From: Bacteroidales bacterium
GTDB taxonomy: Bacteria; Bacteroidota; Bacteroidia; Bacteroidales; FEN-979
Reading direction: 5' to 3'
Assembly (NCBI GenBank): GCA_038244085.1
Contig: JBBRTX010000001.1
Span: forward strand, 74,064-138,063
DNA length: 64,000 nt
Below, one piece after another: positions 17,133 through 62,415 of this stretch (within the stretch, counting starts at the first letter, position 1; each line of letters begins with the position of its first letter). The position numbers and the translations under genes were made by a program. The notes below the pieces were generated by a model. The model worked only from the letters and a program-made list of their open reading frames with translations, did no database searches and was not told the DNA's origin.

Positions 17133-17133
17133 C

Positions 17134-17589
17134 TTAATTTTCTTTCAGGATATAATCGTCATATTCGAGCTCAAACCGCAGTTTATGTTTCGACTCTTCT
17201 TGGGCAAGTCCCAAAAAGATGTTTTTCATAATGGGATCGATCGTTTCTTCCGAAAGCATGAGATATAGACGGAATGCGTTCTTCTCCTTCTTCATGGCCA
17301 GGATGAGTGCATCCGCATACTGCATGTCGGCCGAAGGCGCTACATCGACCAGGTAATCGGCGATCTTCAGATCCCGGATACGTTCAGCGGGCAGGTCGAA
17401 TGATTTGGTTTCCCTGATGTTCAGCAGGCGAAGCTTGTGCTTCATCTCTTCTTCAGCAAAATCCCGAAACACTTCCTTCATCTGCGCATTTTTCGAACGT
17501 TCACTCAGACTGGTATAAAAATCTACCGCTTCCTGTTCTGCGGTGATGGCAAAGTCAAGTATATCATCTGTGGATTGAAAATTTTTCAT
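17134..17589 (-). CDS. ferritin-like / rubrerythrin-family diiron four-helix-bundle protein
   Basis: Two E...ExxH pairs: EQEAVDFY + EEEMKHK and EKNAFRLY + QEESKHK. 151 aa. Its stop is 1 nt from the downstream ATG. Confidence 0.7.
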   Translation of the reverse strand: MKNFQSTDDILDFAITAEQEAVDFYTSLSERSKNAQMKEVFRDFAEEEMKHKLRLLNIRETKSFDLPAERIRDLKIADYLVDVAPSADMQYADALILAMKKEKNAFRLYLMLSEETIDPIMKNIFLGLAQEESKHKLRFELEYDDYILKEN

Positions 17590-17613
17590 TTTGGAATATG
17601 GATTAATCTGTTT

Positions 17614-21321: not shown

Positions 21322-21341
21322 TTTCAGCAAAATTTTTATTT

Positions 21342-23120: not shown

Positions 23121-23139
23121 ATCCTGGATAGATTATTTT

Positions 23140-23658
23140 TTAATTATTCTCAGCAGTCCTGATATTTTTGATGATTTTCACCGTTTCGCTCCCGGTCAGT
23201 TTACCATACGTCTGATCGGCAACCATCATGACCGGTGCGAGGGAACAGCAACCGAGACAGGCAACAGATTCAAGCGTAAAGAGCCGGTCTTCCGTGGTTT
23301 CACCGTCCTTGATTTTCATCGATTCTTCCAGCGCTTCGGTGATTTCTTTGGCATTCTGGACATGGCAGGCAGTACCATGACAAACCTTGATGATGTGTTT
23401 TCCCACCGGATGCATCCGGAATTGTGCATAAAAAGTGGCAACACCATACATCTCGCTTAATTCAAGACCGGTTTCGCGGGAGATTTTTTCAAAAACCGGC
23501 TTGGGTAGAAACCCATAAATCTCCTGAGCACCCTGTAAAAGCGGGATCATGTTGCCTTTCTTTCCTTTGTATTTTTTTATCAAACCATCAAGCAGCGTCA
23601 GATCCGGTTCTGACACATTGTTGAGTATTACTTTTTCTGAAATTCTTGATATTCGCAT
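23140..23658 (-). CDS. NuoE/HydC-like 2Fe-2S ferredoxin subunit
   Basis: Cys pattern CHGTACHV ... CLGCCSLAP. The ORF-track start at 23718 is GTG, and the ATG at 23658 gives a typical length of about 172 aa. Confidence 0.85.
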   Translation of the reverse strand: MRISRISEKVILNNVSEPDLTLLDGLIKKYKGKKGNMIPLLQGAQEIYGFLPKPVFEKISRETGLELSEMYGVATFYAQFRMHPVGKHIIKVCHGTACHVQNAKEITEALEESMKIKDGETTEDRLFTLESVACLGCCSLAPVMMVADQTYGKLTGSETVKIIKNIRTAENN

Positions 23659-23740
23659 AGTCCTGTTTTTATCAATTGAAAAAATTGATTCATCACTTTC
23701 CGGCCTTCGGCTTGTCACCGTCTTTCATTGTTGCCGGACA

Positions 23741-27604: not shown

Positions 27605-27869
27605 GGTAGCTACTTTCAAGGTATGGAATGAACTTTGAGGAAAGGTCGTAAAATTACATATTCTTTTCTTTCCTCCAAATTAATCGTCTAATAATTAGAG
27701 TAATACGTGTTTTACTTATTGTCTTATACGTATTATTCTAACTTTAATTAAGTATTTTTCTTATATTATTGTAAATTAAATACTTATAAAAAAATTTTAG
27801 AATAAATTATGTATTTCGAGAAAATATTTTCTTTAATATTGCTTCACATTTTCACATCCTATTTACTAA

Positions 27870-47258: not shown

Positions 47259-47507
47259 TTATTCTTCCTGGACTTCCTTCTGGTCCTCTTTCTTCCTCAT
47301 TTCATAAATTTTTCGCAGACCATAAGCAGCACCCAAAGTGATAAGCACATAAACTCCGCTATCGATGGGAGCGCCCACGGGAGTCCCGCCACTTCCGGAT
47401 GGAGAACCTCCTCCGGGTGCAGGAGGGCCGGGCGGATCTGCAATTACATTCAGGGAATTCACAGCAAAAAAGGCTGTAACAATAAAGGCTAAGAAGATTT
47501 TTTTCAT
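47259..47507 (-). CDS. 82-aa mini-protein: signal peptide + Pro/Gly linker + PEP-CTERM-style tripartite sorting tail (P-I-D-S-G / TM / basic cluster)
   Basis: MKKIFLAFIVTAFFAVNSLNVIA | DPPGPPAPGGGSPSGSGGTPVGA | PIDSG | VYVLITLGAAYGL | RKIYEMRKK... The ATG at 47507 is internal to the 106-aa track ORF. The competing plus-strand ORFs have no features. Confidence 0.55.
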   Translation of the reverse strand: MKKIFLAFIVTAFFAVNSLNVIADPPGPPAPGGGSPSGSGGTPVGAPIDSGVYVLITLGAAYGLRKIYEMRKKEDQKEVQEE

Positions 47508-47686: not shown

Positions 47687-49918
47687 TCAATGTTTAATAT
47701 AGATTTTGGCACTAACAGTCCCCTTTTCTGTATAAACTTTCGCTACATAAATCCCTTCACCGGCTCCCGGATAAAATTTATTCAGTGGCGTTTTCTCAAT
47801 CCGGTTTTCATAGATTTTCCTTCCCGTCATATCAAAAATCATGATGGTGCCGGTTTGTTCGTATTCCGGTGTTGCTCTTACATAAACATCACCGTTGAAA
47901 GAATAGATACTTATGCCTTTAACTGTTTTCTGATCATCCACCCCAAAGGAAGGATTGGAGAAGTGCAATACAAAACGGTTAGGGTTTTCTTCTTTCTGGT
48001 ATGCAAAACGATAAACGGGATTTAATAACAGATCCTGAAAAGTATTCATTTTCAGATCTTCGAGGAATATTCCCATGCCTGGTTTAAAAGTGTCAAGATT
48101 TTCGGCTGTGATGTTGAAGTTCCCTGCGAAACCAACCGTAAAACCGACTGGAACCAGTGTCGTTTCTCCCGCGAATGGCCTAATATCAATTGCCAGTCGT
48201 TCCATTTCCGGTGTAGTCGAGAAAATCGAAGGAATAGAATCGCTGTTCGTCAGTTTATAGGCATCATAATGTTGATCAATGCCATTTGAAAAGCCATCCA
48301 TCAGAGAAATCGCAATATCATCGGTGAACGGTCCCCCTGAAGTTCTTAACCTGAGATAGTTTGACCATTCCGCATCTTTGTAAAAGACTGCATTATTATG
48401 GACCCGCGTCGGATTGTCACATCCAATCGTTCCTGAAGAAGTGTTTACTTTTATAAAATAGCCCTGCATTGCCGGAATATACCTGGTTGCAGTTCCTGTT
48501 GAAAGACCTGTCCCCCAGGAATAGGTGTCGTATTGGTAAGTGATCCCGTTAGCAGAAGTAAGATAATACAGCACCCGATCAACATTGGATCCCCATGTCG
48601 ACCAACCTCCCGCAGGAGATGAGAAACTACCAAAATCCTGTGCTGACGGATAAGGGTTACCGGCAAGATTCCATCCTCCTCCGCCTGAAGGCGTATAGGG
48701 GAATGATATTGACTGAGCGCCACTATTCAGACTGCCGGTAAATGACCTGCTACCCGACGAACTGCCCAGCCATACTTCATACCCTCTGAAAACTTCAAGC
48801 GGTTCGGTTGTCGTACTTATCCAAGGTCCCCAAACGTTTCCGGGTTCATTCCAGTTTCTCAGATAATCGCCTGTGAATACTGATGAAAGGGCATTTGAAA
48901 TCGGGGAAGTGATATAATGATAGGAATCCTGCGTAATATATCTTTCAACCCTCACGGATCCTCCATTCTTGTATGTGATGGTTCCTGTGTTTCTGAAAGA
49001 GCCGGTGCCGGAAGACCTTGAAGTTATCCATAGTCCGAGCGGGTTGCATATCAAAGTGTTCCCATTCACGGTTAATGGATGGTCTTTGTCAATCAGTAAC
49101 CTGGCTCCCGGATGAATACACAGGTTATAGGCTTTGCATTCTGACCCGGCAGTAGTGCCGGAAATCTGCGCAGAGGCACCGACCGTATCAAACACAGAGG
49201 TACTCACTGCCTGGGCCCAGTCAACAACGCCTCCTGCCTGCATCCAACCTTGTGAGCCGGTATAAATCCTTCCCAGCGCAAGATCGGTCAGATCCTTTCC
49301 TTCAAATAACGAAGGATCTTCATAATAGCTTGCGTAGTATGGGACAACTCCGGTGGCATATTTCTGATAGCCGTTGATTGCACTTATCTGGAAATTGACC
49401 CCTGCTGCCCCGGTAAGGGAATTTATTTTAAGATAAACTGTCCCTAATACCTGCCAGGAGGTCGTGACTTCGGCATACGCCCCGCTTGATGGGGCATTCC
49501 CATTGAAGGACATATTTCCGTAAACCGCAATGTTCAGGTTATTTGAATTCCAGTTAACCGTTGTCACATACTTATCTGCTGGCGGATCAGGAAAAGCGGA
49601 GTACTGTCCGGCAACGAAACCTTTGATGAATGACGGATTAGTGGTTGTATTGAAATTAGCGACATTCACGTTGCAGATGATCTGCGAGGAATAAAGGTAA
49701 GTTCCATTAGCGGATGCTTTCATCAGGATGTCAAAAACAAGGTAATTCACACCCGTGTTATACACGATTTTGGGATTGCTGAAGCTGAATGAAACGGTTT
49801 CCGCTGAATAAACAGAAAAGACCGAGCATAGGATAATCCCCGAACAGATGATGATCTTTTTCATTTTTTTTAGTTTAATGTTTGACATTTCCATGATCCA
49901 TGTTTTTATAAAAGTCAT
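47687..49918 (-). CDS. T9SS-sorted secreted protein of unknown function
   Basis: Signal peptide (MKKIIICSGIILCSVFSVYSAE, from the alternative ATG at 49864). C-terminal type-A Por tail ...ISIYSFNGDVYVRA...GTIMIFDMTGRKIY...GIYVAKVYTEKGTVSAKIYIKH. ATGA overlap with the upstream gene. Confidence 0.75.
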   Translation of the reverse strand: MTFIKTWIMEMSNIKLKKMKKIIICSGIILCSVFSVYSAETVSFSFSNPKIVYNTGVNYLVFDILMKASANGTYLYSSQIICNVNVANFNTTTNPSFIKGFVAGQYSAFPDPPADKYVTTVNWNSNNLNIAVYGNMSFNGNAPSSGAYAEVTTSWQVLGTVYLKINSLTGAAGVNFQISAINGYQKYATGVVPYYASYYEDPSLFEGKDLTDLALGRIYTGSQGWMQAGGVVDWAQAVSTSVFDTVGASAQISGTTAGSECKAYNLCIHPGARLLIDKDHPLTVNGNTLICNPLGLWITSRSSGTGSFRNTGTITYKNGGSVRVERYITQDSYHYITSPISNALSSVFTGDYLRNWNEPGNVWGPWISTTTEPLEVFRGYEVWLGSSSGSRSFTGSLNSGAQSISFPYTPSGGGGWNLAGNPYPSAQDFGSFSSPAGGWSTWGSNVDRVLYYLTSANGITYQYDTYSWGTGLSTGTATRYIPAMQGYFIKVNTSSGTIGCDNPTRVHNNAVFYKDAEWSNYLRLRTSGGPFTDDIAISLMDGFSNGIDQHYDAYKLTNSDSIPSIFSTTPEMERLAIDIRPFAGETTLVPVGFTVGFAGNFNITAENLDTFKPGMGIFLEDLKMNTFQDLLLNPVYRFAYQKEENPNRFVLHFSNPSFGVDDQKTVKGISIYSFNGDVYVRATPEYEQTGTIMIFDMTGRKIYENRIEKTPLNKFYPGAGEGIYVAKVYTEKGTVSAKIYIKH

Positions 49919-51411
49919 AAAACAACCAGTTTCTGAATGACACTTTTGTTCTCACAATGAATGGCCAGGAAGTAAAGACCGGGCGTCAGGTCCCGTATAT
50001 CGATGAGATAAACACTGGACTCACTTCCCTGAGAAGCATCATATTTCTTAACTAAAATGCCATCGTTTGTAAAAAAGGCCACTTTAATAGTTTTTATTGG
50101 CGCAACGGAAGATTTAAGGAGGAAATAATCCTTGGCCGGGTTGGGTATGATTTGAAATAAGGAGGACATCGGTTCGGTTGTATTAGTGGAAATAACCACA
50201 TGGAGATAATTTGAGATATCTGAACTGCATTGGTTAAGCGTCACGATATCAGAATAATTACCGGTTACACCGGGAGTGTATGATTGACCCGTAGCACCGG
50301 GTATCGGAATTTGCTCAAGTAGCCATTGATTGCCGGAGGGTGAACTTGAGGTTAGGCTGATTCCTTCCAGAGTGATAACCGGAGCAGGCGGGACCGGGTT
50401 GACGATCACTTCCGCATAACCAGATGATAGGCCGCTGCAATTGGCATCAGAAACAGAAGTAACCGTATAGAGACCGGGATCGGAAGTATAAATGAAATAA
50501 GGTGTACTATATTGGTTGCTGACTAGGGTGGTATCAAATCCATTTGAAATTTTAAAATTCCAGGGAGGGGTTCCCGTAAAGTCAGTTATGATGATAGCCG
50601 TTGAACCATCATCACACAAGCTTTCACCACCCGAAACATAGGCCGTAGGAAGTGATGAGGAGGTGACATGTAATACCGAAACTGGACCTGGTCCGCATTC
50701 GTTGACTCCGCTTACCGTAATATCTCCGGATGCGGAGTTGGATGAATAATCCACCGAGATGACATTCGTATCTGACACACCAGTTATTATTGCACCTGCA
50801 GGAACGGTCCAACTGTAACCTGTTGCGCCGGATATTGTTGCGACTTCATAAACAACATTTTCCTGTCCGGCACAAACGGCGGTTTCTCCCCAAATCTGTC
50901 CGGGAGCGTCCAAGGCTCCGCATAGCATTCCGTTAACATAATACTGAACAGTTGGGGTATCAATAAGTATGTTATTGTTTCCGTCTGAATACATGCAGGT
51001 ACCCCCAATATCAAACCAAACCAGGGAGTCATTTCCGTTAAAATAGGTGAAAATATAATTGAACAACCAGCTTCCATCGGGCAGGGTGAGGCTGTTTCCA
51101 TACCAGCCTATGACAATCCGGTGATAACCGGTTCCCAGGTCAAGATCCCCGACAGAAAAGTTGCCGCTAAGCAACGGGTTTTTGTTACACTGAACATAAT
51201 GGATTTTTGAATAATCATAATCCAGATAAAGCGTGATCGAAGCAATATTATTAAAACCGGTAATGGTAACGGGAACAGTAACCTGCTGCCCCGGAAGTAA
51301 ATTCCCGATGGTTGCGGCAGTAGTCACAGGTGCAGTCTGGGCTTTCCCTGTTGGGGAAAATCCCGGTAATAAATTCGCTGTGATCACTACAAAAAATAAA
51401 AATCGCTTCAT
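49915..51411 (-). CDS. secreted protein: cohesin-like module + Ig/PKD-like domains + T9SS C-terminal domain
   Basis: Signal peptide. Cohesin-like LLPGQQVTVPVTITGFNNIASITLYLDYDYSKIHYV...YYVNG. Ig-like GATGYSWTVPAGA...NECGPGP. Tail IPNPAKDYFLL...LTPGLYFLAIHCENKSVIQKLVVL. Confidence 0.75.
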   Translation of the reverse strand: MKRFLFFVVITANLLPGFSPTGKAQTAPVTTAATIGNLLPGQQVTVPVTITGFNNIASITLYLDYDYSKIHYVQCNKNPLLSGNFSVGDLDLGTGYHRIVIGWYGNSLTLPDGSWLFNYIFTYFNGNDSLVWFDIGGTCMYSDGNNNILIDTPTVQYYVNGMLCGALDAPGQIWGETAVCAGQENVVYEVATISGATGYSWTVPAGAIITGVSDTNVISVDYSSNSASGDITVSGVNECGPGPVSVLHVTSSSLPTAYVSGGESLCDDGSTAIIITDFTGTPPWNFKISNGFDTTLVSNQYSTPYFIYTSDPGLYTVTSVSDANCSGLSSGYAEVIVNPVPPAPVITLEGISLTSSSPSGNQWLLEQIPIPGATGQSYTPGVTGNYSDIVTLNQCSSDISNYLHVVISTNTTEPMSSLFQIIPNPAKDYFLLKSSVAPIKTIKVAFFTNDGILVKKYDASQGSESSVYLIDIRDLTPGLYFLAIHCENKSVIQKLVVL

Positions 51412-51438
51412 AATCCGGTATTGTGATGTTACTGAACC

Positions 51439-53877
51439 CTATGGTAGTGAACTGCTTCTTCCGAAGTTGACCAACCAGAAATCCGTATAATCATCCAGGT
51501 ATACTTTCCCGTTAAGATTGAAATCACTGGGGAGATATTGAATAAGACCAAAATCCCGCATCCAGAAATCCGTGTAGTCATCGATGTAAATACTTTTCGA
51601 TTGATTAGCATCTCCTGCCACCATCCCCCATTTGGATAAGGTTCCGTCAATCAGCTTATAACCGGTTGTTCCACCATATGCCTTTGCGGACCCTGTGGTA
51701 AAATCGTACAAAGCACTCCCTCCGTTCAATGTTACTGTAGCTGCACTCATGATGGCGAGATGATTACGGTGCTTGATTACCACATAATAATTTCCATAAG
51801 CAACCCCCGGGAAACGCAGGCCGGTTGTTCCATCTATATCCGTAACTGAACCATCATTTTTTAAAAATCCTGCTCTTGCGGCTACTTTGGATGAAGCCCA
51901 TGGATTGGTCCTGAGCTCTACCAGGATCCAGTCGGTGCTATTGGCAGGAATGGATGTAACTGATTCTGTTCCCGCATAATTCCATGGTGAGCCTGAATAG
52001 GGTTGTGTTAATGGCATGATGGATCCAAGCGATATCCCCATTGATCCGGACTGATAGGGCCCCTCAAGAAAAACTTTTAACTGCGCATTGAGATCAATTG
52101 AAGAATTATTCACGGTTCCATTCAGATAAAACTGGCTTTTGGGAAGGTCATAGAGTGATGGCGAAGATCCTCCTTCTGAATAACTGCATCCGCCACCATC
52201 GCACAACCACTGGATTCCACTTGTTCCTCCGTTGAAATAAAAACCAAGATTCAGAAGCGTGGCTCCATCCGTTAACCCTGCGGGTCCGCCCGACCAGACA
52301 ATGGAAAGCAATCCCGGTTCAGGATTGGATGCGGTAAATGTTCCGCCTAACGGAGCGGCAAGCGCAGTAGTCAGGTAATTCAGAACTGCAGGATCGTAAG
52401 CAAGGGTAAATGAAAAAGCACCAATGTTGCTAAAATTCCTGACCTTCACCGGAACGATGACATTCTGACCGGGATTAGCATTCACAGCCACTGCCTGTGT
52501 TACCGGAGCCAGATGTGTGCCGACAAGACCATCCTGGTAAAAATTACTGACGGGTTCTTTCCACAATGGTTTCAACCCTGTCCATTTATACATGCATGAA
52601 TCACCCCCGGTATTCCATTTCAACGCGGAAGATCCACCTCCCGTCACATTAAAGTTGAAACTGATAATTTCACTGTTGTCAGGGAGCGTCTTGGGCGACC
52701 CGGACCACGACATGGTAATCCGGCTTTTTCCGTCGGGACCCGGCGGAAGGTTATTCACTGCCATTGCACCTGCGAAGATGGAATTCACCGTATAAGCTCC
52801 GGCGGGAAGGGTCATCACCGATGCATCATAACTAAAACTCAGGGCAAGAGAAGCGATATTTGAAAAACCACTCACTTTAACAGGGACTGAAGTAGAAAGT
52901 GGGGATACCGGAGCATTGGAGATTACCGGTAACAAGGTTTTTGGTGAAACACTGCAGGCGACCAATCCGTCTTTAAAAAATGCAGACTGAGGCGTATCAT
53001 ACAACTGGTTCCATTGGACATCATTGAAGCTACATGATCCTCCATTATCATACCATGAAAGGGTTGTATACGTTTTATCCTGATTGCTAAAATTAAAATT
53101 CAGCGTACACAGTATGCTGCCATATGGGAGTGTGACGCCAAGACCTGAAAAATCCATCCAGTTGATTACCATTAATTTCCTGCTGCCTCCAATCCCCTGG
53201 GGAGAACCCACCATAAAATAGCCCGCCACAGATGGGTGAGCGACAAAAGACTGATAGGTAAGAACCGCAGTATCGTATGAAAAATACAAGGTTCCGGCCG
53301 CAATACTGGTATAATTTGTAACGGTAATGGGCACGGAGACCGTTCCGTTCTGGGCATTGTCAATATATGGCGCCTGTACGACCGGTGAGGCATAAGTGAC
53401 GACACCATTCTTATAATGATCTGTTTTGGGAAGATCATTCAATACGGTAAAAGCACCACCGGAATATTTTTTAAACAAGCAGGAACTCCCTGATGTTGCC
53501 CAGGTCAGATCTGCCACACCCGATACATAAGTAAAAGTAAGAACCACGAGATTTGAACCGTCCGGAAGGGTTACCCCATAGGTGCCGGTCCAGGTAATGG
53601 TGATTGTGCCCGGCGTACTGCCGTTAATGGTAAGACTACCAAACACGGCATTTCCTGTTCCACCCTGATAGGTGACCTTTGAAACCGGGTAATTCATTGT
53701 GAGCTGAAAATAACCGATATCGGTAAAGGATTTTACACTGACAGGGATCGTGACCGCGGAAAAGGTTTTGGCAGCATAAAGGGCGGATCCGGAGGAAACG
53801 ACCGGTGCATCTTGTGAAAAAGACGCTGCTGCAAATAACCAGAAAAGACCAAGTAATAAGGCGGTTTTTGTTTTCAT
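51439..53877 (-). CDS. scaffoldin-like secreted protein: 4 tandem cohesin-like modules + LEGPY/HRNH beta domain + C-terminal dockerin-like pair, no T9SS tail
   Basis: The start is set at MKTKTALLLGLFWLFAAASFSQ (ATG 53877), because the track ATG at 53943 lies in the loop of the upstream terminator. Module 4 reads NPGQNVIVPVKVRNFSNIGAFSFTLAYDPAVLNY...FYLNG. The C-terminus reads GDANQSKSIYIDDYTDFW...SDFNLNGKVYLDDYTDFW. Confidence 0.75.
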   Translation of the reverse strand: MKTKTALLLGLFWLFAAASFSQDAPVVSSGSALYAAKTFSAVTIPVSVKSFTDIGYFQLTMNYPVSKVTYQGGTGNAVFGSLTINGSTPGTITITWTGTYGVTLPDGSNLVVLTFTYVSGVADLTWATSGSSCLFKKYSGGAFTVLNDLPKTDHYKNGVVTYASPVVQAPYIDNAQNGTVSVPITVTNYTSIAAGTLYFSYDTAVLTYQSFVAHPSVAGYFMVGSPQGIGGSRKLMVINWMDFSGLGVTLPYGSILCTLNFNFSNQDKTYTTLSWYDNGGSCSFNDVQWNQLYDTPQSAFFKDGLVACSVSPKTLLPVISNAPVSPLSTSVPVKVSGFSNIASLALSFSYDASVMTLPAGAYTVNSIFAGAMAVNNLPPGPDGKSRITMSWSGSPKTLPDNSEIISFNFNVTGGGSSALKWNTGGDSCMYKWTGLKPLWKEPVSNFYQDGLVGTHLAPVTQAVAVNANPGQNVIVPVKVRNFSNIGAFSFTLAYDPAVLNYLTTALAAPLGGTFTASNPEPGLLSIVWSGGPAGLTDGATLLNLGFYFNGGTSGIQWLCDGGGCSYSEGGSSPSLYDLPKSQFYLNGTVNNSSIDLNAQLKVFLEGPYQSGSMGISLGSIMPLTQPYSGSPWNYAGTESVTSIPANSTDWILVELRTNPWASSKVAARAGFLKNDGSVTDIDGTTGLRFPGVAYGNYYVVIKHRNHLAIMSAATVTLNGGSALYDFTTGSAKAYGGTTGYKLIDGTLSKWGMVAGDANQSKSIYIDDYTDFWMRDFGLIQYLPSDFNLNGKVYLDDYTDFWLVNFGRSSSLP
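52105..53805 (-). repeat. four tandem ~140-aa cohesin-like coding repeats
   Basis: Each unit has (V/I)xVP(V/I)xVxxF(T/S)xI(G/A)xxxLxxxY(D/P)xxV(L/M)x(Y/L) near its start and (F/H)Y(K/Q/L)(N/D)G near its end. ORF residues 47-185, 186-330, 331-477 and 478-613. Confidence 0.7.
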
Positions 53878-53927
53878 GATAATGACGGGTAGAGGTATGA
53901 CATCAGGAAATTTTAAAACAAAAAATT

Positions 53928-53961
53928 GAAAAGAGGGGAGCATGACACTCCCCTCTTTTTC
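53928..53961 (-). terminator. rho-independent terminator after the 1895-aa gene
   Basis: A perfect 12-bp stem, AAAAGAGGGGAG (53929-53940) / CTCCCCTCTTTT (53948-53959), with a 7-nt loop. On the minus strand it is followed by CAATTTTTTGTTTT and begins 6 nt after the TAA. Confidence 0.65.
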
Positions 53962-53966
53962 AGGTT

Positions 53967-56900
53967 TTATTTATTCACCACAATTTTAATGGTTCTAAGC
54001 AATTCGTCAGTTCCGTTTTTGAACTTCAGAACAGCCATGTAGATTCCGGAAGGCATCTGTGTGGATGCCAGTTTCACGTTATGCTTGCCACTTGCCTGTG
54101 GTTCATTCACATAGGTAGCGATAACCTGGCCAACCATGTTCATAATCTCAAGTGTGACTTCTCCGCTTTCGGGGAGCGTATAACTGATGGTAGAGTAATC
54201 CTTGAAAGGATTTGGATGACAATTCAGCGAGAAATCCTTACCGTTCGGATCAATGATACCGACAGGTGAATTTGCTATGACCTCAACGCCGAGTTGAGCA
54301 TGCGGAATGACCATTGCATCGGCATCAGCCAGTTCGTTCAAAGGATCACCAGCCAGCGTTAACCGGAAAGTGCTTCCTTCAACGAATGCGGAAGTAGTCT
54401 TCAGTTTCAGGATCACCACTGCATCGGTTTCTGCAACCTGCATTGATGTTTCCGAATACCAGCTGATCTTCAGCACATTGTCATTTACACTATAACTTAC
54501 CGGGGAATTACTGCCTGTTACGGTTACATCTTTAACTTCCACCAGGTCTGACGGAACATTAAGGACGAGAGAAACAGCGCTCAGACCCATGGCGGTTGTG
54601 GCATAAACCGGGAGTTCAAATTCCTGACCGGCTCCCACGTTCCTTGTGGATCCATAGGTAATTTCGAGGTTCTCAGTTTCGGCCTTTGCAGATCCGGGAA
54701 TGTAGCTCTCGTTAAAGTCTCCGGTAACACCTGCCAGAAGATCAATGTTAACGAGGTCGGCTGATGCAAGAAGCTTCACAAACCAGGTCAGTGGAGGAGC
54801 GGGTATCTGGGTGTTTAACATATCACCTTTCTTCCAATATGACCATGGAGCGCGGGTAAACGGCGTTCCTGAAACAAAGAACTGCTGAATGCGCAAAGCA
54901 TCAAAACCGGTAAGGAGATTATCGTTAGTAACGTCACCCTGCAGGAAACGGCTGTGCTGAATTGGGAACAGGATGGTCGGCCAAATGAGCACCTGTGCGG
55001 CATCTGTAGAGTTTATACCACCAACGGGTTTATTGTTTTGTGTGACGATAACGGTATAATCTCCTGCACAAAGGTTTGTGAAAGAATACTGCCCTGATGC
55101 ATTGGTCGTCGCAGTCTGAATAGGAACGGTTCCGGGAACTGGTACCAAACCAACTCCGACATTACTCATCGTCGTGGTATAGCAGTTCGGATACGTGATG
55201 GTACCGGAGAGATTCCTGAAGACTACCGTAACCGTCTTGCAACAGTTAGAGAAGCAACCGGTTTGCGGATCTGTCGTTTTAAGACACAGCGTAAAGGTTC
55301 CTGCGCCCAGCGCTGTAACATTCACAGTTTGCTGGATAGCAGATCCTATGATCGTTCCATTGCCGGAAATGGTCCAGAGGTAGTTCAGACCTGACGGACC
55401 GGTATACACGTTGTTCAGCGCTCCCGGGCAAACATAACTTTCACCAGTGATCAGACACGATGGATTCCTGTTGAAGGTTATATGAATCGGGATATCCAGT
55501 GAAGTACAATTGTAGATATCCTTGATGGAACCTGTAAAGGTATAGTTGTCCGGAGGATAATCGCCGGGAACCGTTAACATGGGTTCTCCTGTATTACCTG
55601 CAACCCAGTATTGCAAACCATCAACCAGTTTATAATCGGTTCCTACCTTCTTAACATAGAAGAATGGAGCATTACCATTGATGATCAGCCACATCTGTCC
55701 CTGCCATCCTGTAGCGCCTGCAACAACACCTCTGGCTGCCCAGTAAGCAAAGTAAGCAGCAGCATTCGGCACGTTGGTCAGCTTGAAAGGATTGAGGAAA
55801 TTATCCATTAAAGGCTGGGTAGCGGTGAGCGTATTAATATCAAGGTAATAGCTCGGTACAGCAGGATCAAGACACATGTTGTAGTTCATACAGAGTCCAT
55901 TCATCTCAATCCAGGGGCCTGTACCAACCATAAATTGCAAGGTGGCGCACTCAAGAATAGGAAGTGGGTGAACGATCACTGTCTTACTGCAAATTCCGTA
56001 GCAGTTATTGCGATAGATCTCGTCAGTTACTGTGTAGGAATCTTCACTTCCGGCAAGAATCGTTACGGTAGCAAGCGTATGCGAACCAATAATGATTCCA
56101 TGACCTGTTACATTCCAGTGATGGGTTACAGTTCCGCCTGCTGGCAGCACTGTGCTGGTATGCGTGTTGGTGGATCCCTGGCAAACAGATATCGGACCAT
56201 CAATTGAACAGGTTGGAATTGCGCTTACCTGTACCGTTTTGGTGCAGGAACTGGCACAACCATTCCGGGTGATATTGTCGGTAAGTGTGAATGGGCCATC
56301 AACCAGACCGGCAATAATGTCGACAGTAGCTGTGTTGTTTGCGCCATTAATGGTTCCGTTTCCGGTGATAGACCATAAATGGGTTACGGTTCCGCCTGCG
56401 GGTAATACCGTAGAGGTATAACTCCCGGCAGATCCTCCGCAAACATTGGCATCACCTGCGATGGAGCATGTCGGAATTGGATTTACCGTTACTGTTTTGC
56501 TGCATGACCCCGGGCATCCGTTACGTGTAATCGCGTCTGTCACGGTGTATGTCCCGGCAGCTGTTGCAGTAACAGTTACTGATGAACCTGTAAGTCCTGA
56601 AGTGATCGTTCCGTTGCCGGTGATTGACCATGAATGGGTTACGATTCCGCCGGCAGGAAGGACAACATTTGCATATACATTTCCTGTTGAAAGTGCACAA
56701 ACGGCATCTGGTCCATCGATGGTGCAGGTCGGATTAGGATTAACAACTACTGTAATACAGCATGAACTGGCACAACCATTGCGTACAATATTGTCGCAAA
56801 GGGTGAAGGTTCCTTCTGCATTCGTTGTTGTATGAATCATTACACTGGCATCCGTTGTTGATCCAACAATGGTTGCAGCACCTGTGATTGTCCAGGCATG

Positions 56901-59654
56901 TGTAACAGTTCCCAATGCCGGGAGAACCGTGCTTGTATAGGTATAATTTCCCTGGAGGCTGTAGCAAACAGGATTTGGTCCGGCTATGCTGCAGGTCGGA
57001 ATTGGATTAACAGTAACCGTCTTGCAGCATGTCTGAACTGCAGTACATCCATCGCGTGTTACCAACAAGCAAAGGGTGTAACTTCCGGATACTCCTGCAA
57101 CTACATTTACCGTGGATGCATTTGTGGCTCCGCTGATGGAACCATTTCCTGTAATCGACCAGGAATAGGTACCAGTGGTATAACCCACAGGCAGGATAGC
57201 ACCTGAATAAACATTGGTAGTTCCTCCGCATACCGGATCAGGACCGGTGATTTGGCAGGTCGGTATGGGTTTTACAATTACCGTCTTGTTGCATGTTCCC
57301 GGGCAATTATTCCTGGTAATGGCATCGGTAACGATATATTGACCCGTAGCACCTGCGAGTACTGTAACAGAGGCAGTATTGGTTGCTCCTTGTATCGTAC
57401 CATTGCCTGTGATGCTCCATGAGTGGGTAACAATTCCACCTGCCGGAAGCACAACATTTGCGTGCGTGTTGGTTGAATTACCGCAAACGGCATCAGGACC
57501 ATCAATTGTACAGGTTGGATTGGGATTTACTGTTACAATAACACTGCATGAACTCGGGCAGTCATTACGAACGATATCATCCTGAACAGTATAAGTTCCG
57601 GATGCACCGGCAATAACGATGAGGGTAGCACTTGTATGACCTCCGCTGATCGTTCCGTTACCGGTTAAAGTCCAATGATGTGTGACCACTCCTCCAGACG
57701 GAAGTACCGTGCTGGTGTAAGTATTGGTTGTTGCACCGCAAACCGCAAGTGGTCCCGCAATGGAACAAGTCGGCATCGGGTTGACGATGACTGTTTTACT
57801 TTTTACACCCGGACATCCCTCGCGGGTAAAGTTATCGGTGATGGTAAAGGTACCTGATGCACCTGCACGAACCCTCACAATGGGTTCTGTCCAGAACCAA
57901 ACAATCTCGTTACCGTTTCCGAGCATAACTCCGTCACCGGTGATCGTCCAGTAATGTGTCTCTGTTCCGAGAAGCGGGAGGACAAAGATATCATATTCAT
58001 TAATCGTTCCGCCGCATACAGGATCAGGACCGCTGATGGTAGCCGTCGGTGTTTCTTTAACAAGAACTGTTCTTATACAAAATCCCGGACAGCCATTACG
58101 GACAATATTATCCGTGAGGATATAAAGGCCATCATCACCGGCAATTACGTTAACTGTAGCAAGGTTGGTTGGTCCGCTGATGGTTCCATTGCCTGTGATT
58201 GACCAGGAATGGGTTACCGTTCCGTCGAGCGGATTCACTACAGATGTATAGAGGTTAGTTGTTCTTTCACATACATCACCAGGACCTTCTATTGCACAAA
58301 TTGGGTTGGGATTAACAATTACCGTCTTGCTGCAGGTTCCGGCACAACCGTTCCTTGTCAGATTGTCAGTAACTGTATAGGAACCGGAGAGGCCAGCATG
58401 AACGTTAACAGTAGCCAGGTTGGTGGCACCGTTAATCGTCCCGTTTCCTGTGATGGTCCATGAATGTACTACGGTTCCGCCTGCAGGAAGCACGGTGCTT
58501 GTATGGTTATTATACGAAAGTCCGCATACTGCCGAAGGTCCGTCAATTGTACAGGTCGGGTTTTTATTTACCACAACTGTCTTGGAGCACCATCCGGCGC
58601 ATCCATCCCGGTTGACCGCATCGGTGATCGTAAAAGATCCGTCACCGACACCGGCAAGAACTGTTACCGTTGAGCCGTCACTAGCACCGACAATTGTGCC
58701 ATCACCAGTAATGGTCCATGAATGAGTAACCGTACCTCCATCCGGAAGAACACCGGAAGAGTAAGTATTGGTTGTAAGACCGCAAACCGGAGCAGGCCCG
58801 GTGATTGTACAGGTTGGATTTGGTTTAACTACAATCGTGACTGGTACAGAGTCAACACAGCCAAAACCATCCTTTACCTTGAAGTATAAAAGGTATTCAC
58901 CGGCATTCGGGGAAGTAAAATAAGGATTTGAAATGGTTGTACTGTTAAGATAAACAGCACCGGGTCCCGACCATTTATAGGTGTATGGGAACGCAGTTGT
59001 ATTGTGCTGTCCAATCAGTTGCAGGGGTGCATACTGACAAGTCGTATAAGGGGGATTTACCCATGCATTCAGTAAGCTTGCGCGGCCATTTACGTAGTTG
59101 GCTGCTGCCTGGCATAGAATATCACTGCCGAAAGCAAGAACCTGGGCTGCATTGGAATAAGCGGATTGATAAACATCCCAGTTCAAAGCGGTCACACCAC
59201 CACCCGGTGGCAGAAAGTTGAAGGTGAGATTGAAGATAACTTGTCCGTCATTCAGGAACCACCCGCTGCCAAGCGTGAAAGCAGGATATGTCCATGAAAT
59301 TGTAACGGAGCCGGGGCCATTGGGCTGACCAACCATTGGGGCTGGAAACCCGGAAGGAAGATTGGGTGCCGTTATCACTCCTGCGAATTGCAGTACAGTC
59401 GGATCGAAATCAAACTTGAGAGAAATAGCGGCAATATCCGCAAAATTGACCCCGCTGTTCGTTATCGGAACAACAATTGTCCCGGCCTGCTGAACGCAAA
59501 TAAACGGGAGCTGGGTGATCGGTGCACAACCCGTGCATGGACAACACCCTATAAATTGGCCCGGGACACCACAGGGTCCTTGGGCTGAAACCATGTTAAT
59601 GCCGGTTATCAGCATCAGCAAGGTTACAAGGATAGGTAATAATTTCGTTTTCAT
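53967..59654 (-). CDS. 1895-aa T9SS-sorted surface protein: Cys cluster, cohesin-like module, 12 Cys-framed Ig-like repeats, CarboxypepD_reg-like + dockerin-like segment, second cohesin-like module, Por tail
   Basis: Signal peptide MKTKLLPILVTLLMLITGINMVSAQ. Cohesin-like GTIVVPITNSGVNFADIAAISLKFDFDPTVLQF. Second cohesin-like GQEFELPVYATTAMGLSAVSLVLNVPSDLVEV. Tail HPNPFKDYSTISYTL...SGIYMAVLKFKNGTDELLRTIKIVVNK. Confidence 0.85.
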   Translation of the reverse strand: MKTKLLPILVTLLMLITGINMVSAQGPCGVPGQFIGCCPCTGCAPITQLPFICVQQAGTIVVPITNSGVNFADIAAISLKFDFDPTVLQFAGVITAPNLPSGFPAPMVGQPNGPGSVTISWTYPAFTLGSGWFLNDGQVIFNLTFNFLPPGGGVTALNWDVYQSAYSNAAQVLAFGSDILCQAAANYVNGRASLLNAWVNPPYTTCQYAPLQLIGQHNTTAFPYTYKWSGPGAVYLNSTTISNPYFTSPNAGEYLLYFKVKDGFGCVDSVPVTIVVKPNPTCTITGPAPVCGLTTNTYSSGVLPDGGTVTHSWTITGDGTIVGASDGSTVTVLAGVGDGSFTITDAVNRDGCAGWCSKTVVVNKNPTCTIDGPSAVCGLSYNNHTSTVLPAGGTVVHSWTITGNGTINGATNLATVNVHAGLSGSYTVTDNLTRNGCAGTCSKTVIVNPNPICAIEGPGDVCERTTNLYTSVVNPLDGTVTHSWSITGNGTISGPTNLATVNVIAGDDGLYILTDNIVRNGCPGFCIRTVLVKETPTATISGPDPVCGGTINEYDIFVLPLLGTETHYWTITGDGVMLGNGNEIVWFWTEPIVRVRAGASGTFTITDNFTREGCPGVKSKTVIVNPMPTCSIAGPLAVCGATTNTYTSTVLPSGGVVTHHWTLTGNGTISGGHTSATLIVIAGASGTYTVQDDIVRNDCPSSCSVIVTVNPNPTCTIDGPDAVCGNSTNTHANVVLPAGGIVTHSWSITGNGTIQGATNTASVTVLAGATGQYIVTDAITRNNCPGTCNKTVIVKPIPTCQITGPDPVCGGTTNVYSGAILPVGYTTGTYSWSITGNGSISGATNASTVNVVAGVSGSYTLCLLVTRDGCTAVQTCCKTVTVNPIPTCSIAGPNPVCYSLQGNYTYTSTVLPALGTVTHAWTITGAATIVGSTTDASVMIHTTTNAEGTFTLCDNIVRNGCASSCCITVVVNPNPTCTIDGPDAVCALSTGNVYANVVLPAGGIVTHSWSITGNGTITSGLTGSSVTVTATAAGTYTVTDAITRNGCPGSCSKTVTVNPIPTCSIAGDANVCGGSAGSYTSTVLPAGGTVTHLWSITGNGTINGANNTATVDIIAGLVDGPFTLTDNITRNGCASSCTKTVQVSAIPTCSIDGPISVCQGSTNTHTSTVLPAGGTVTHHWNVTGHGIIIGSHTLATVTILAGSEDSYTVTDEIYRNNCYGICSKTVIVHPLPILECATLQFMVGTGPWIEMNGLCMNYNMCLDPAVPSYYLDINTLTATQPLMDNFLNPFKLTNVPNAAAYFAYWAARGVVAGATGWQGQMWLIINGNAPFFYVKKVGTDYKLVDGLQYWVAGNTGEPMLTVPGDYPPDNYTFTGSIKDIYNCTSLDIPIHITFNRNPSCLITGESYVCPGALNNVYTGPSGLNYLWTISGNGTIIGSAIQQTVNVTALGAGTFTLCLKTTDPQTGCFSNCCKTVTVVFRNLSGTITYPNCYTTTMSNVGVGLVPVPGTVPIQTATTNASGQYSFTNLCAGDYTVIVTQNNKPVGGINSTDAAQVLIWPTILFPIQHSRFLQGDVTNDNLLTGFDALRIQQFFVSGTPFTRAPWSYWKKGDMLNTQIPAPPLTWFVKLLASADLVNIDLLAGVTGDFNESYIPGSAKAETENLEITYGSTRNVGAGQEFELPVYATTAMGLSAVSLVLNVPSDLVEVKDVTVTGSNSPVSYSVNDNVLKISWYSETSMQVAETDAVVILKLKTTSAFVEGSTFRLTLAGDPLNELADADAMVIPHAQLGVEVIANSPVGIIDPNGKDFSLNCHPNPFKDYSTISYTLPESGEVTLEIMNMVGQVIATYVNEPQASGKHNVKLASTQMPSGIYMAVLKFKNGTDELLRTIKIVVNK
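55956..58811 (-). repeat. 11 tandem coding repeats of 85-92 aa (255-276 bp), with a 12th diverged copy at 55218-55457
   Basis: Consensus C(T/S)I.GP..VCG..TN.Y.S.VLPAGG.VTHSW.ITGNGTI.GA.N..TV.V.AG..G.YTVTD.I.RNGC.G.CSKTV.VNPNPT. Boundaries come from residue counting (residues 282-1233). Copies differ at many synonymous sites. Confidence 0.85.
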
Positions 59655-59866
59655 AATTTTCGATTTTTGATTGTGTCAATCGTACATTTGCAGCGCAGCA
59701 AACCGATTTCGCAGGGTTAAACGGGGGAATCTCTTGTCCGTTTACGCGCCTTTCCGCATGTCCAAACACAGGTCTTCCTGCATTTGACGGAATGGCAAAC
59801 TGGGGTAAATAATGAATCCATTTTCCTGAAGATTAAGGAACCCATGCGACGCAGACGACGCGGATC

Positions 59867-59908
59867 CGTGTTTGGGCAATCCCTTTTACAAACATTAATC
59901 CAAACACG
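59867..59908. promoter_or_regulatory. 9-bp perfect inverted repeat CGTGTTTGG-N24-CCAAACACG in the leader of the 1895-aa gene (candidate activator site)
   Basis: Arms at 59867-59875 and 59900-59908. A third CCAAACAC copy lies at 59762-59769. GCAAACTG also occurs twice (59795-59802 and 59908-59915). The sites lie 108-254 nt upstream of the ATG. Confidence 0.3.
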
Positions 59909-60147
59909 CAAACTGCTGATATTCAGAACGTATGATAATCGTAGGTGAAATACAGGGTGATCATTTCCGGGCAATTGGAAGCAACAAAATTCCGCAAATA
60001 AAGCAACAAAGCCTGTTAGCAGCGATTTGCCCGAATATGGGCAGATGTCCGGTTTAAAAGTTAGTCCCTTGACCTGGATACGAAATACATAAAAGGGGCA
60101 AAAGCCGGCTGGCCCTCACCCGAAAAGAAAAAAACGTGAAATTGAAT

Positions 60148-61524
60148 CTAGAAAACAATCTGAAGCTTCATGATCCGGCGATCCAAAGCTTGTCTTGAAA
60201 TAGATAGAAGCCTGGCAGCTTCCGATTTGTTGTTTTTTGTCTGTGTAAGTGCCTGAATGATGGTTTTCTTCTCCACATCAAACAAATTCAACGATAACTG
60301 GGCCTGAATGCTTCCATTCCGGTCAGCCGTCCGTTGACCATCAAACCGGAAATTTTTCAGTGTCAGTTTGTTTTCATCAGACATGATCACGGCACCTTCA
60401 ACAAGATTTCTCAGTTCCCGCACATTCCCCGGGAATGAATAGGCCATGAGCCTTTCCATGGCGCGGTCATCAATGGGTTTTGCCGCCTTGTTCATTCTTG
60501 CGGAAATAACAGAAACATAATGATTTAACAGAACAGGGATATCCACTTTTCTTTCCCTCAGTGGCGGAATATGTATATGAAAAGCGTGTAACCGGTGGTA
60601 GAGATCTTCCCTGAACATCTTTTTCTCGATCAGTTTGTGAAGATCCTGGTTGGTGGCAGAGATAATCCGCAGATTCAGATTGACTTCCTGATGTGAACCG
60701 ATCTTATGAATGGTCTTGTCATCCAGTACCCTCAAGAATTTAGATTGCATGCACAACGGCAATTCCGTGATCTCATCAAGAAACAATGTACCCTTGTTGG
60801 CCATCTCGAACCATCCGATGGATTTCTCAATCGCCCCGGTAAAGGCACCTTTTATATGACCAAAGAACTCGCTTTCAAAAAGGCTATCGGGTATGGCCGA
60901 GCAGTTTACAGCATGAAAGGCATGAGACTGACGGTTACTCAGGGCATGAATGCCTCTGGCCACCAGTTCTTTGCCGGTACCGCTTTCTCCTGTGATCATG
61001 ACAGAAGTGTCTTCGGCCTGGGAAACAAGAAGGATAAGACTGGCGATGGTTTTAATGGAAGTGCTCGCCCCGATGATTTGCGGACCGGACTTCAGCCTGG
61101 ACTCATTTATAAAATGCTGAAAGTTCAGATCCAGTTGATTTGAATGATTCCGGAATTTTAAAAATGACCTGGTCTGCTCAAGTGCAGCCTTCAATTCAGG
61201 AAAATGCAATGTTCCGCATAGGGAATCAGAAAGTCCGTATTTAAAAGGTTTCAAGGATTTCTCACCGCTGCTCTCCGGATCGACCACCAGCATCTCCAGA
61301 TCCGGGAATCCTGATTTCAGGCTTCTGATAAAGTTTGTCGCTGAGCCATTAATATGCGTCAAATCAAGAAGTATGATATCAATATTGGTTTCACGAAGTA
61401 TCTGAACGGCAGTGACAGGATCAGCGGTATGATGCAACACAACTTCTTCAGGGAGGTTATATCCCCGAATCTGTTCGGTTAAAGAGCCATGCCCCTCTAA
61501 AACTAACAACTTTATCCTGTTCAT
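60148..61524 (-). CDS. sigma54-dependent transcriptional activator (NtrC family: receiver + AAA+ + Fis-type HTH)
   Basis: Walker A GESGTGKELVARGIH, an intact sigma54-contact loop GAFTGA, Walker B LFLDEITEL, and C-terminal NKSEAARLLSISRQALDRRI. The receiver has LVLEGHG in place of the usual acidic pair. The start is set at the ATG at 61524. Confidence 0.85.
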   Translation of the reverse strand: MNRIKLLVLEGHGSLTEQIRGYNLPEEVVLHHTADPVTAVQILRETNIDIILLDLTHINGSATNFIRSLKSGFPDLEMLVVDPESSGEKSLKPFKYGLSDSLCGTLHFPELKAALEQTRSFLKFRNHSNQLDLNFQHFINESRLKSGPQIIGASTSIKTIASLILLVSQAEDTSVMITGESGTGKELVARGIHALSNRQSHAFHAVNCSAIPDSLFESEFFGHIKGAFTGAIEKSIGWFEMANKGTLFLDEITELPLCMQSKFLRVLDDKTIHKIGSHQEVNLNLRIISATNQDLHKLIEKKMFREDLYHRLHAFHIHIPPLRERKVDIPVLLNHYVSVISARMNKAAKPIDDRAMERLMAYSFPGNVRELRNLVEGAVIMSDENKLTLKNFRFDGQRTADRNGSIQAQLSLNLFDVEKKTIIQALTQTKNNKSEAARLLSISRQALDRRIMKLQIVF

Positions 61525-61664
61525 TGCTCTAAATAAAATCTGATTGACCCCAAGCACTATTCCAGAAAAGTGCTTTTATGAAAATTTCAGCGTACCAAAG
61601 CTAACCCGAAGTATTGCGTAAGGCAAGAGTAAAAAGGCTGAAATTTATTAGGCTAAAAACCCAT

Positions 61665-61731: not shown

Positions 61732-62415
61732 CTATACCTGAAGGCTGGATTTCAACATTTCATCAGGTAGGAGGAGGTTGTGAACAATGGCGAAACGCAT
61801 CAGATGGGCTGAATTCCTGGCCCCGAACTTAATCAGCAGGTTATTGCGATAACCATCAACTGTTCGTTTGCTCAGATGGAGCAGCTCCCCTATTTCCTTA
61901 TCGGAAAATCCAAGGCTTATAAGACTCAGTACTTCCTTTTCTCTTCGGGAGAGGATTACATCCGATTCAACGAAGTTGTTGCTGCTTAATAAGGAAGTAT
62001 TATCTTCCTGGCTGATTTTTGTCGAGATATAAAATCTTCCTTCCGTCACATTATGAAGACCATGGAGAAATTCATGCCGGTCGGCCGTCTGGTTCATGAT
62101 CCCGCAGATATTTGAATCAAAAACATTACCGGGGTTAATCCCCAGGCCTTCATCACACAAACAGATCACCCTGATACACTTGATTTTCATGACCTCATTA
62201 AAAATCGGTCTGAGACATCGAACCGTACTGATAAGGATTCCCTTTTGGTGTTCCTGGATGACCAAATTCATTTCCTCCCAGGATCCGGTTGAATGAATAA
62301 TTTTATAATCGGGTTCCGACAAAATCCATTGCCGTATACCCTCAAGAATCACAGGCCGGTCCTCAAGAATAAATAATTTTATCGCCTTTGGATTAATCTT
62401 TTCCTCTCGTTTCAC
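61732..62415 (-). CDS. LuxR/FixJ-type response regulator with atypical receiver
   Basis: C-terminal HTH LSRREKEVLSLISLGFSDKEIGELLHLSKRTVDGYRNNLLIKFG. The N-terminal receiver-like fold starts KLFILEDRPVILEG, but I see no clear phospho-acceptor Asp context. GTG start. Confidence 0.7.
   Translation of the reverse strand: MKREEKINPKAIKLFILEDRPVILEGIRQWILSEPDYKIIHSTGSWEEMNLVIQEHQKGILISTVRCLRPIFNEVMKIKCIRVICLCDEGLGINPGNVFDSNICGIMNQTADRHEFLHGLHNVTEGRFYISTKISQEDNTSLLSSNNFVESDVILSRREKEVLSLISLGFSDKEIGELLHLSKRTVDGYRNNLLIKFGARNSAHLMRFAIVHNLLLPDEMLKSSLQV

Follow-up and report, generated by a model that had tools for sequence, protein, structure and literature searches.

The window analysed here is a 64,000-nucleotide stretch of a Bacteroidales genome (contig JBBRTX010000001.1, positions 74,064 to 138,063; coordinates below are counted from its first letter). 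On its minus strand, at 51439-53877, it encodes an 812-residue protein with four cohesin modules and a predicted C-terminal X-module–dockerin (X-Doc). We think it probable that this protein is a Sec-exported, non-catalytic adaptor scaffoldin, whose X-Doc plugs into a cohesin partner carrying the sorting tail, or C-terminal domain (CTD), of type IX secretion (T9SS). An earlier sequence-only reading had stated that the protein resembles an adaptor scaffoldin, and the likeness is well founded, because four Pfam cohesins are accompanied by an X-Doc recognizable from a family profile, from orthologues and from a structural model.

Domain architecture of the scaffoldin

The four cohesins announced by the sequence-only reading are returned by Pfam as four stretches of the Cohesin family (PF00963; E = 1.3e-25, 90.6 bits versus a cut-off of 24.1). 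No Pfam family beyond these four cohesins matches the protein, and NCBIfam gives no match at all. For comparison we used four homologues (P0002, 68% identity; P0003, 43%; P0004, 43%; P0011, 35%) and, for the C-terminus, an alignment called A1, in which 53 of the 139 relatives found with the last 217 residues are aligned with the window sequence (54 rows). The features of the gene, from its upstream side, are as follows.

53929-53959, minus strand: terminator-like hairpin with a stem of 14 bp and a T-run behind it, located between the upstream 1895-residue gene's stop and the likely scaffoldin start
53815-53877, minus strand: Sec signal peptide MKTKTALLLGLFWLFAAASFS, read by eye from the sequence
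53383-53811, minus strand: cohesin 1 (Pfam PF00963), 48% identical to cohesin 1 of P0004
52942-53382, minus strand: cohesin 2 (Pfam), 47% identical to cohesin 2 of P0004
52513-52941, minus strand: cohesin 3 (Pfam), 55% identical to cohesin 3 of P0004 and 69% to that of P0002
52084-52512, minus strand: cohesin 4, the best Pfam stretch of the four, with a weak match to the cohesin 5nrm_A
51616-52092, minus strand: X-module, a predicted beta-sandwich packed on the dockerin (LKVFLEGPY ... DWILVELR ... HRNHLAIMS ... YDFTT), from AlphaFold, Foldseek and alignment A1
51442-51615, minus strand: dockerin-like module, consisting of loop 1, helix 1, a linker with an invariant Tyr, loop 2, helix 2 and a C-terminal strand ending in SSLP
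51577-51612, minus strand: dockerin loop 1, DANQSKSIYIDD, followed by helix 1
51490-51525, minus strand: dockerin loop 2, DFNLNGKVYLDD, followed by helix 2

Cohesins at the same position in the scaffoldin and in P0004 share 47-55% identity each, against just 28-33% between cohesin 1 of the scaffoldin and its own cohesins 2-4. Since identity between equal positions of different proteins exceeds identity within the protein, the array appears to be old, with its four positions individually conserved, and this conservation suggests that the four cohesins have distinct specificities.

The C-terminal sequence was quoted exactly by the sequence-only reading, which described it as a dockerin-like pair of two 12-residue calcium-loop-like segments six residues apart. 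Both loops stand and are conserved in the 54 family members of A1. The spacing does not: nine residues (FGLIQYLPS) lead from helix 1 to loop 2, and the starts of the two loops are 29 residues apart. Asp occupies loop position 1 in 54/54 sequences for both loops and position 12 in 53/54 and 54/54; position 3 is Asn or Asp, position 5 is Asp, Ser or Asn, Gly predominates at position 6, and Ile, Val or Leu stands at position 8. At positions 1, 3, 5 and 12 the scaffoldin loops read D-N-S-D and D-N-N-D. The resulting pattern, D-x-N/D-x-D/S/N-G-x-I/V-x-x-x-D, corresponds to what one would expect of an EF-hand/dockerin calcium signature.

Further support for a dockerin comes from profile comparison and from the orthologues. 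When the A1 profile was run against PDB sequences, 22 of the 25 matches were dockerins, all falling on the last 60 profile positions, and the best was the Clostridium cellulolyticum Cel5A dockerin (2vn5_B, E = 1.8e-4). P0004 and P0011 share the four-cohesin architecture and, where the scaffoldin has its dockerin-like module, close with canonical dockerin repeats (GDSNQDQIVDGSDLSDI...EDLNGDGLVDGADLSIA); for P0011 a precomputed PF00404 match lies at the position of the scaffoldin dockerin. The other two homologues, P0002 and P0003, have the same ...DDYTD[FY]W...DDYTD[FY]W...LP ending as the scaffoldin.

AlphaFold2, supplied with A1, folds the last 217 residues into one compact unit (predicted local distance difference test, pLDDT, 97.2; predicted template modelling score, pTM, 0.93), in which residues 1-159 form a beta-sandwich, residues 170-180 and 199-209 form helices, and the last residues are modelled with confidence too (pLDDT 93). 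A disordered or non-EF-hand C-terminus, the outcome that the earlier reading had set against its own claim, is not what the prediction gives: the segment is ordered and EF-hand-like. The seven best Foldseek matches of the model in the PDB are all type II X-Doc dyads of scaffoldins (probability 1.00, target-normalised template modelling score 0.32-0.61), including those of Acetivibrio cellulolyticus ScaA (4u3s_B, E = 7e-6; 4wi0_B) and Clostridium thermocellum CipA (4fl4, 3kcp_A, 2b59_B). Because the top matches are such dyads, the modelled tail appears to be an X-Doc dyad, which is more than the pair first proposed. It is through an X-Doc dyad that clostridial scaffoldins plug into anchoring cohesins.

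The open reading frame (ORF) itself is real; its strand, minus, is a correction to the earlier description. Translation from MKTKTALL gives the 812 residues, and the form beginning at the first ATG (51439-53943, minus strand) has 834, the numbering to which the residues 777-834 cited earlier belong. The hairpin at 53929-53959 covers this first ATG at 53943. Since the first 22 codons of the longer form lie on a strong terminator-like hairpin, the true start is most likely the MKTKTALL codon at 53877, as had been assumed. The homologues share an ...AQNAPV motif here, and cleavage between MKTKTALLLGLFWLFAAASFS and QDAPVV would place Gln at +1, the pattern known in Bacteroidetes as the Q-rule. No lipobox Cys is found in the signal peptide or in the QD that follows it, so the protein does not qualify as a surface lipoprotein.

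Absence of a T9SS tail

The scaffoldin had been singled out as the only protein of four without a Por C-terminal domain, and the profile searches agree. Pfam finds no Por_Secre_tail in it, and the three neighbours on the same strand all carry a T9SS type A sorting domain. With Pfam and NCBIfam at E≤0.1, neither the type A sorting domain (TIGR04183/PF18962) nor that of type B (TIGR04131/CHU_C) nor that of type C (NF033708) was detected in the scaffoldin.

Such an absence could in principle mean that a T9SS cargo has been cut short here, its tail removed by frameshift, mutation or assembly error, a suggestion to which we assign a negligible probability. In none of the homologues is a truncated or frameshifted Por tail present; all four, at 35-68% identity, have their C-terminal end at the same position as the scaffoldin, and thousands of X-Doc family members have the same kind of ending. 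Only 27 nt separate the scaffoldin stop from the next start codon. Also, the region 51200-54000 is identical, without substitutions or indels, in contigs from three runs of two studies (sediment and other metagenomes). Judging by these comparisons, the artefact explanation appears to be refuted already.

The X-Doc family

The family defined by A1 has a C-terminal module of ∼220 residues with the motifs LEGPY, DWxLVELR, HRNHL and YDFT, two calcium loops and a ...QVP/LP end. Its helices come in several subtypes (DYTDFW, DKNDxW, TDFNxFN and AADVTxII). The window ORF scores 306 bits against the A1 hidden Markov model (HMM; E = 2e-93) and is 37-62% identical to other members. Among 1.84 billion cluster representatives (50% identity), the A1 profile matches 16,824 at E≤1e-3, of which 7,845 remain under the stricter limit of E≤1e-30, and the module sits nearly always at the C-terminal end. 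At least 593 X-Doc loci are present in GTDB species representatives. All of the 80 loci that we inspected belong to metagenome-assembled genomes (MAGs) of the Fibrobacterota–Chlorobiota–Bacteroidota (FCB) group, namely Bacteroidales and other Bacteroidota, Ignavibacteria, Calditrichia, Chlorobiota and Rhodothermales, and several genomes are multi-copy. Two relatives bear other labels, Syntrophothermus in one case and Gammaproteobacteria in the other, and both labels probably stem from errors of binning. No Pfam or NCBIfam family matches the X-Doc module, NCBIfam is likewise silent on the isolated scaffoldin C-terminus, and we found no description of the module in the literature; it appears to represent a family of great size that is as yet undescribed.

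Among 104 ORFs, about 85% have the end of the module, ...(S/T)QVP, at most two residues from the stop. This extreme C-terminus is kept as (S/T)QVP[x] across the family (P0048-P0167; L004-L083) and takes the form SSLP in the window (51442-51465). Members with an insertion of 14-30 residues behind helix 2 still finish in Y/F-x-S-Q-V-P. The conserved terminal motif might serve as a structural clasp or be recognised as a C-terminal signal.

The passengers of 78 X-Doc proteins match 82 Pfam families, including beta-helix, cohesin (4 proteins), GEVED, PKD, FG-GAP and the peptidase families Peptidase_M14, C10, M6 and C25. In characterised Bacteroidota, cargo of the C25, C10, M6, M14, beta-helix and GEVED types usually carries a T9SS CTD. 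It seems from the domain composition that X-Doc takes the place of the T9SS tail on cargo typical of the surface, for example the C25, C10, M6 and M14 peptidases.

Tailed neighbours of the scaffoldin

The scaffoldin and its three tailed neighbours are closely spaced, with intergenic gaps of 89, 27 and -4 nt (scaffoldin start taken as 53877). The neighbours are:

53967-59654, minus strand: upstream partner candidate, 1895 residues, with a T9SS type A tail; its pairing with the scaffoldin is kept in locus L001
49915-51411, minus strand: downstream partner candidate, 498 residues, with cohesin, PKD_6, Ig and T9SS tail; it begins 27 nt past the scaffoldin stop
47687-49918, minus strand: downstream partner candidate, 743 residues, with an N-terminal domain called ND (∼49349-49804) and a T9SS tail at the end

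The tails of the 498- and 1895-residue proteins pass both Pfam and NCBIfam, and that of the 743-residue protein passes only NCBIfam TIGR04183 (24.3 bits versus a cut-off of 23). The 1895-residue giant combines an N-terminal cohesin with about 12 PKD-like repeats and an SdrD_B/CarboxypepD_reg-like domain, and its C-terminal part holds a cohesin-like module and the tail. Its cohesin-like module, which lies between the SdrD_B/CarboxypepD_reg-like domain and the tail (∼54170-55020, residues ∼1545-1810), reaches 81% in hhalign against the cohesins of the cluster. A dockerin-like stretch noticed by eye before this module (GGINSTDAAQ...GDVTNDNLLTGFDA) finds no support in profile comparison, which gave it a probability of 1.6%.

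This gene order is conserved. In L001, the locus of P0004, a 2140-residue orthologue of the giant stands directly upstream of the P0004 gene; it shares both the Cys-rich N-terminus with its cohesin and the C-terminal cassette that includes a Por tail. The contig of P0003 reads (cut giant) - scaffoldin - 674-residue Cohesin+PKD_6+Por tail protein - (cut gene).

The scaffoldin and the 498-residue gene are in one reading frame, with one stop and nine codons between them (51412-51438). We note that a single read-through of the scaffoldin stop would put the X-Doc in one chain with the 498-residue partner candidate, next to its signal peptide and cohesin.

T9SS, gliding-type and Omp85 genes are found nearby. 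Directly upstream of the cluster are genes for a sigma-54-dependent activator (60148-61557, minus strand) and a LuxR/GerE-type regulator (61732-62415, minus strand). A search of the 490 nt between the genes (59655-60147) gave no sigma-54 promoter of the -24/-12 type, and matches across the window are below chance. Just downstream of the cluster an 82-residue protein (47259-47507, minus strand) combines a signal peptide and a Gly/Pro-rich stretch with a PIDSG motif, a transmembrane helix and a basic tail. By its sequence it resembles a sorting signal of the PID-CTERM type; it has a weak precomputed PF28310 match and no match in our Pfam scan at E≤0.001. Farther away, two large PPDK_N-domain proteins of 994 and 1292 residues, one with a receiver-like N-terminus, are encoded within 14148-27619 (minus strand), and between them are genes for NuoF-like, Fe-S, pyridine-nucleotide oxidoreductase and molybdopterin proteins. 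An 881-residue TPR-CHAT (caspase-like) protein is encoded at 9542-12187 on the plus strand.

ND-CTD genes and fusions with X-Doc

Neighbours of X-Doc genes were clustered across the 80 loci. The largest family consists of small proteins of 250-410 residues, often encoded immediately downstream of the X-Doc gene. Their layout (ND-CTD) comprises a signal peptide, an N-terminal ND domain of ∼160 residues without Pfam match, an Ig-like domain in some members, and a T9SS tail; Por_Secre_tail was present in 10/10 ND proteins tested, and NCBI names them merely 'T9SS type A sorting domain-containing protein'. Where enough downstream sequence was available, an X-Doc gene is directly followed by an ND gene in 19/88 cases and by another X-Doc gene in 9/88. 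Seen from the other side, 20/29 ND ORFs in the examined loci are directly downstream of an X-Doc gene.

In one Bacteroidales MAG the two modules are fused in a passenger-XDoc-ND-...-Por_Secre_tail order (L017:4330-8364 and L081:3406-8370; E = 1.9e-12 and 8e-13). Another locus has an ND-XDoc protein (L025:5422-6846) followed by two ND-CTD genes, an arrangement that can be read as a miniature of the layout of the window. Fusions of X-Doc with ND are useful as 'Rosetta stone' evidence.

In the window the ND profile matches the 743-residue protein only (E = 4.4e-8). Compared with the cohesins of the cluster by hhalign, ND reaches probabilities of 84% (E = 7.5e-6) and 67% (E = 5e-5) over 94-98 columns. 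Residues 258-742 of the 743-residue protein are homologous to residues 344-816 of P0030 (E = 1e-51), which has Pfam cohesin modules N-terminally, where the former has ND. The ND profile finds nothing among PDB sequences but an irrelevant alginate lyase match, and the ND domain of the 743-residue protein, used as a query against a large protein database, returned just one homologue. With moderate profile scores and a weak structural model, ND looks like a divergent cohesin-like domain.

Discussion

We propose that a calcium-dependent dockerin, stiffened by the X-module, would plug into a cohesin or cohesin-like module of a co-operonic CTD protein. Receptor candidates are the 498-residue Coh-PKD-CTD protein, the 743-residue ND-CTD protein and the 1895-residue giant. 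Because the partner is a T9SS substrate, it would supply the outer-membrane passage, and with it the surface anchoring, that the scaffoldin lacks. Coupling might take place in the periplasm before translocation, as hitch-hiking, or after a separate export step; the former is weakly favoured by the adjacency of the genes, by the fused proteins and by the fact that no other signal is recognised. Piggy-backing on a tailed partner was one of the options listed in the sequence-only reading, and it gains indirect support from adjacency and fusions in related genomes. The four cohesins would then display further proteins of the X-Doc family.

The same logic might extend much further, although we would sooner bet against this wider version than for it. 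Cohesin–dockerin pairing may act as a trans-acting tag for T9SS secretion and anchoring across the FCB superphylum, with the scaffoldin as its multivalent adaptor version. Thousands of Sec-exported proteins with X-Doc in place of a CTD would then dock in the periplasm on a small cohesin-like CTD protein, often the product of the next gene, and reach export and display by this means. Such a system would be the first hitch-hiker route through the T9SS, and its 'cellulosome logic', in a Gram-negative setting, would chiefly serve peptidases and adhesins.

Several points weigh against the adaptor model. To our knowledge, co-translocation of a non-covalent partner through the T9SS has never been demonstrated. 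Pfam is blind to the dockerin: neither the last 64 nor the last 213 residues match PF00404 (Dockerin_1) even at E≤10. The A1 HMM finds no other X-Doc ORF within the 64-kb window, which leaves the four cohesins without local ligands, and the gene immediately downstream of the scaffoldin encodes a canonical cohesin-CTD protein, not an ND protein. Adjacency of ND-CTD concerns about a fifth of X-Doc genes and was seen in other genomes, mostly of Ignavibacteria, Calditrichia and unclassified Bacteroidota. Finally, although the 16 best PDB matches of the AlphaFold model of the window ND domain are all cohesins by Foldseek, confidence in this model is low (pLDDT 53, pTM 0.59), so the fold matches are only suggestive.

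Other explanations start from the same observations. X-Doc itself might be an unrecognised C-terminal secretion or sorting signal, for the T9SS or another way across the outer membrane, that works in cis and without a cohesin partner for export, with any cohesin binding only afterwards on the surface. This would fit the almost invariable position of X-Doc at the extreme C-terminus, its standing for the CTD on cargo types that are usually CTD-tailed, the conservation of the terminal (S/T)QVP, which is re-established past insertions of 14-30 residues, and the restriction of 80/80 examined loci to the FCB group. However, since the last residues are confidently modelled within the fold, they would form a structural clasp rather than a free tag. 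Also, the fusion proteins hold both X-Doc and a downstream CTD, which would be redundant were X-Doc sufficient, and the predicted fold is a helical dockerin on a beta-sandwich, with no Foldseek match annotated as a T9SS CTD. We hold a cis-acting signal to be unlikely.

It is less likely still that the scaffoldin stays in the periplasm as an assembly platform or chaperone for T9SS cargo or X-Doc proteins. A Sec signal peptide without lipobox Cys and without any recognised signal for outer-membrane translocation is what such a protein would have, but the passengers of the family (gingipain-like C25, C10, M6 and M14 peptidases, adhesin-type repeats, beta-helices) make sense extracellularly, and all three operon partners are T9SS substrates bound for the surface. 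Just as improbable, in our opinion, is that the cohesin-type modules bind no dockerins here but serve, within a surface adhesin cluster, as Ig-like spacers or as modules for carbohydrate binding or adhesion, with the dockerin-like tail serving only as a calcium-stabilised structural cap. Outside cellulosomes, cohesins and dockerins whose function is unknown occur widely (Peer et al. 2009, as cited in PMC6487960), and Pfam finds neither a glycoside hydrolase nor another enzyme in the cluster. On the other hand, cohesins and X-Doc share one protein and one operon here, genes for X-Doc and the cohesin-like ND adjoin or are fused elsewhere, and the calcium-loop and helix positions are kept in both repeats, like in functional dockerins.

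Cohesin–dockerin scaffolding is a textbook feature of the Gram-positive cellulosome. The window holds what appears to be the full adaptor-scaffoldin architecture, X-Doc included, in a diderm lineage, where it is tied to type IX tails and not to S-layer or sortase anchors. The adjacency of X-Doc and ND-CTD genes makes the way in which CTD-less surface proteins cross the outer membrane a two-gene question. If the proposed coupling is true, it would change the genome-based prediction of T9SS secretomes, because CTD-less proteins are now scored as non-substrates. It would also provide a modular display system for Bacteroidota.

Comparison with known systems

With the T9SS type A CTD cargo (TIGR04183/PF18962; gingipains, for example) the X-Doc proteins share their phyla, Sec export, a surface-type character and passengers of the C25, C10, M6 and M14 families. 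Unlike in that cargo, the scaffoldin tail is predicted to be a beta-sandwich with a helical dockerin and not the Ig-like fold of the CTD. Departure of a signal-less protein together with a signal-bearing partner is known from the 'piggy-back' substrates of the twin-arginine translocation pathway and from the AB5 toxin, which is assembled in the periplasm before export by the type II secretion system; the likeness of the proposed route to both is one of analogy only.

The closest characterised architecture is that of A. cellulolyticus ScaB, with four cohesins and an X-Doc. Like ScaB, CipA and ScaA, the protein described here appears to be non-catalytic and secreted, with tandem cohesins and a C-terminal X-module–dockerin; crystal structures of the CipA and ScaA X-Doc are the best matches of its predicted one, and, as in clostridia, the scaffoldin gene adjoins genes for cell-surface cohesin proteins. 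Sequence likeness to the clostridial proteins is seen only at the profile and structure level. The differences are considerable. The host is an uncultured diderm sediment bacterium of the FCB group rather than a Firmicute and has an outer membrane to cross, and the putative anchoring partners use T9SS CTDs instead of S-layer homology or sortase signals. The X-module, of ∼159 residues, is larger than the clostridial one, and the dockerin, with no more than two helices, has a short linker of nine residues. The scaffoldin has no carbohydrate-binding module, and glycoside hydrolases are absent nearby.

A cellulosome-like system has been inferred for another FCB MAG, Candidatus Stygibacter of the Cloacimonadota (Williams et al. 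2021, PMC8542988). According to the available text of that paper, S8, gingipain-like C25, GH18 and GH57 enzymes with signal peptides and dockerin tails are inferred to bind a cohesin scaffoldin with a T9SS CTD that attaches it to the surface; an X-module, a downstream cohesin-like-CTD gene and the crossing of the outer membrane by dockerin proteins are not mentioned in it. The presence of an X-module and the genetic coupling of X-Doc to small cohesin-like-CTD proteins set the system described here apart. As described there, the Stygibacter scaffoldin is itself CTD-tailed, whereas in our window the multi-cohesin protein ends in X-Doc and the cohesins with CTDs belong to separate proteins, an arrangement that would amount to an extra adaptor tier.

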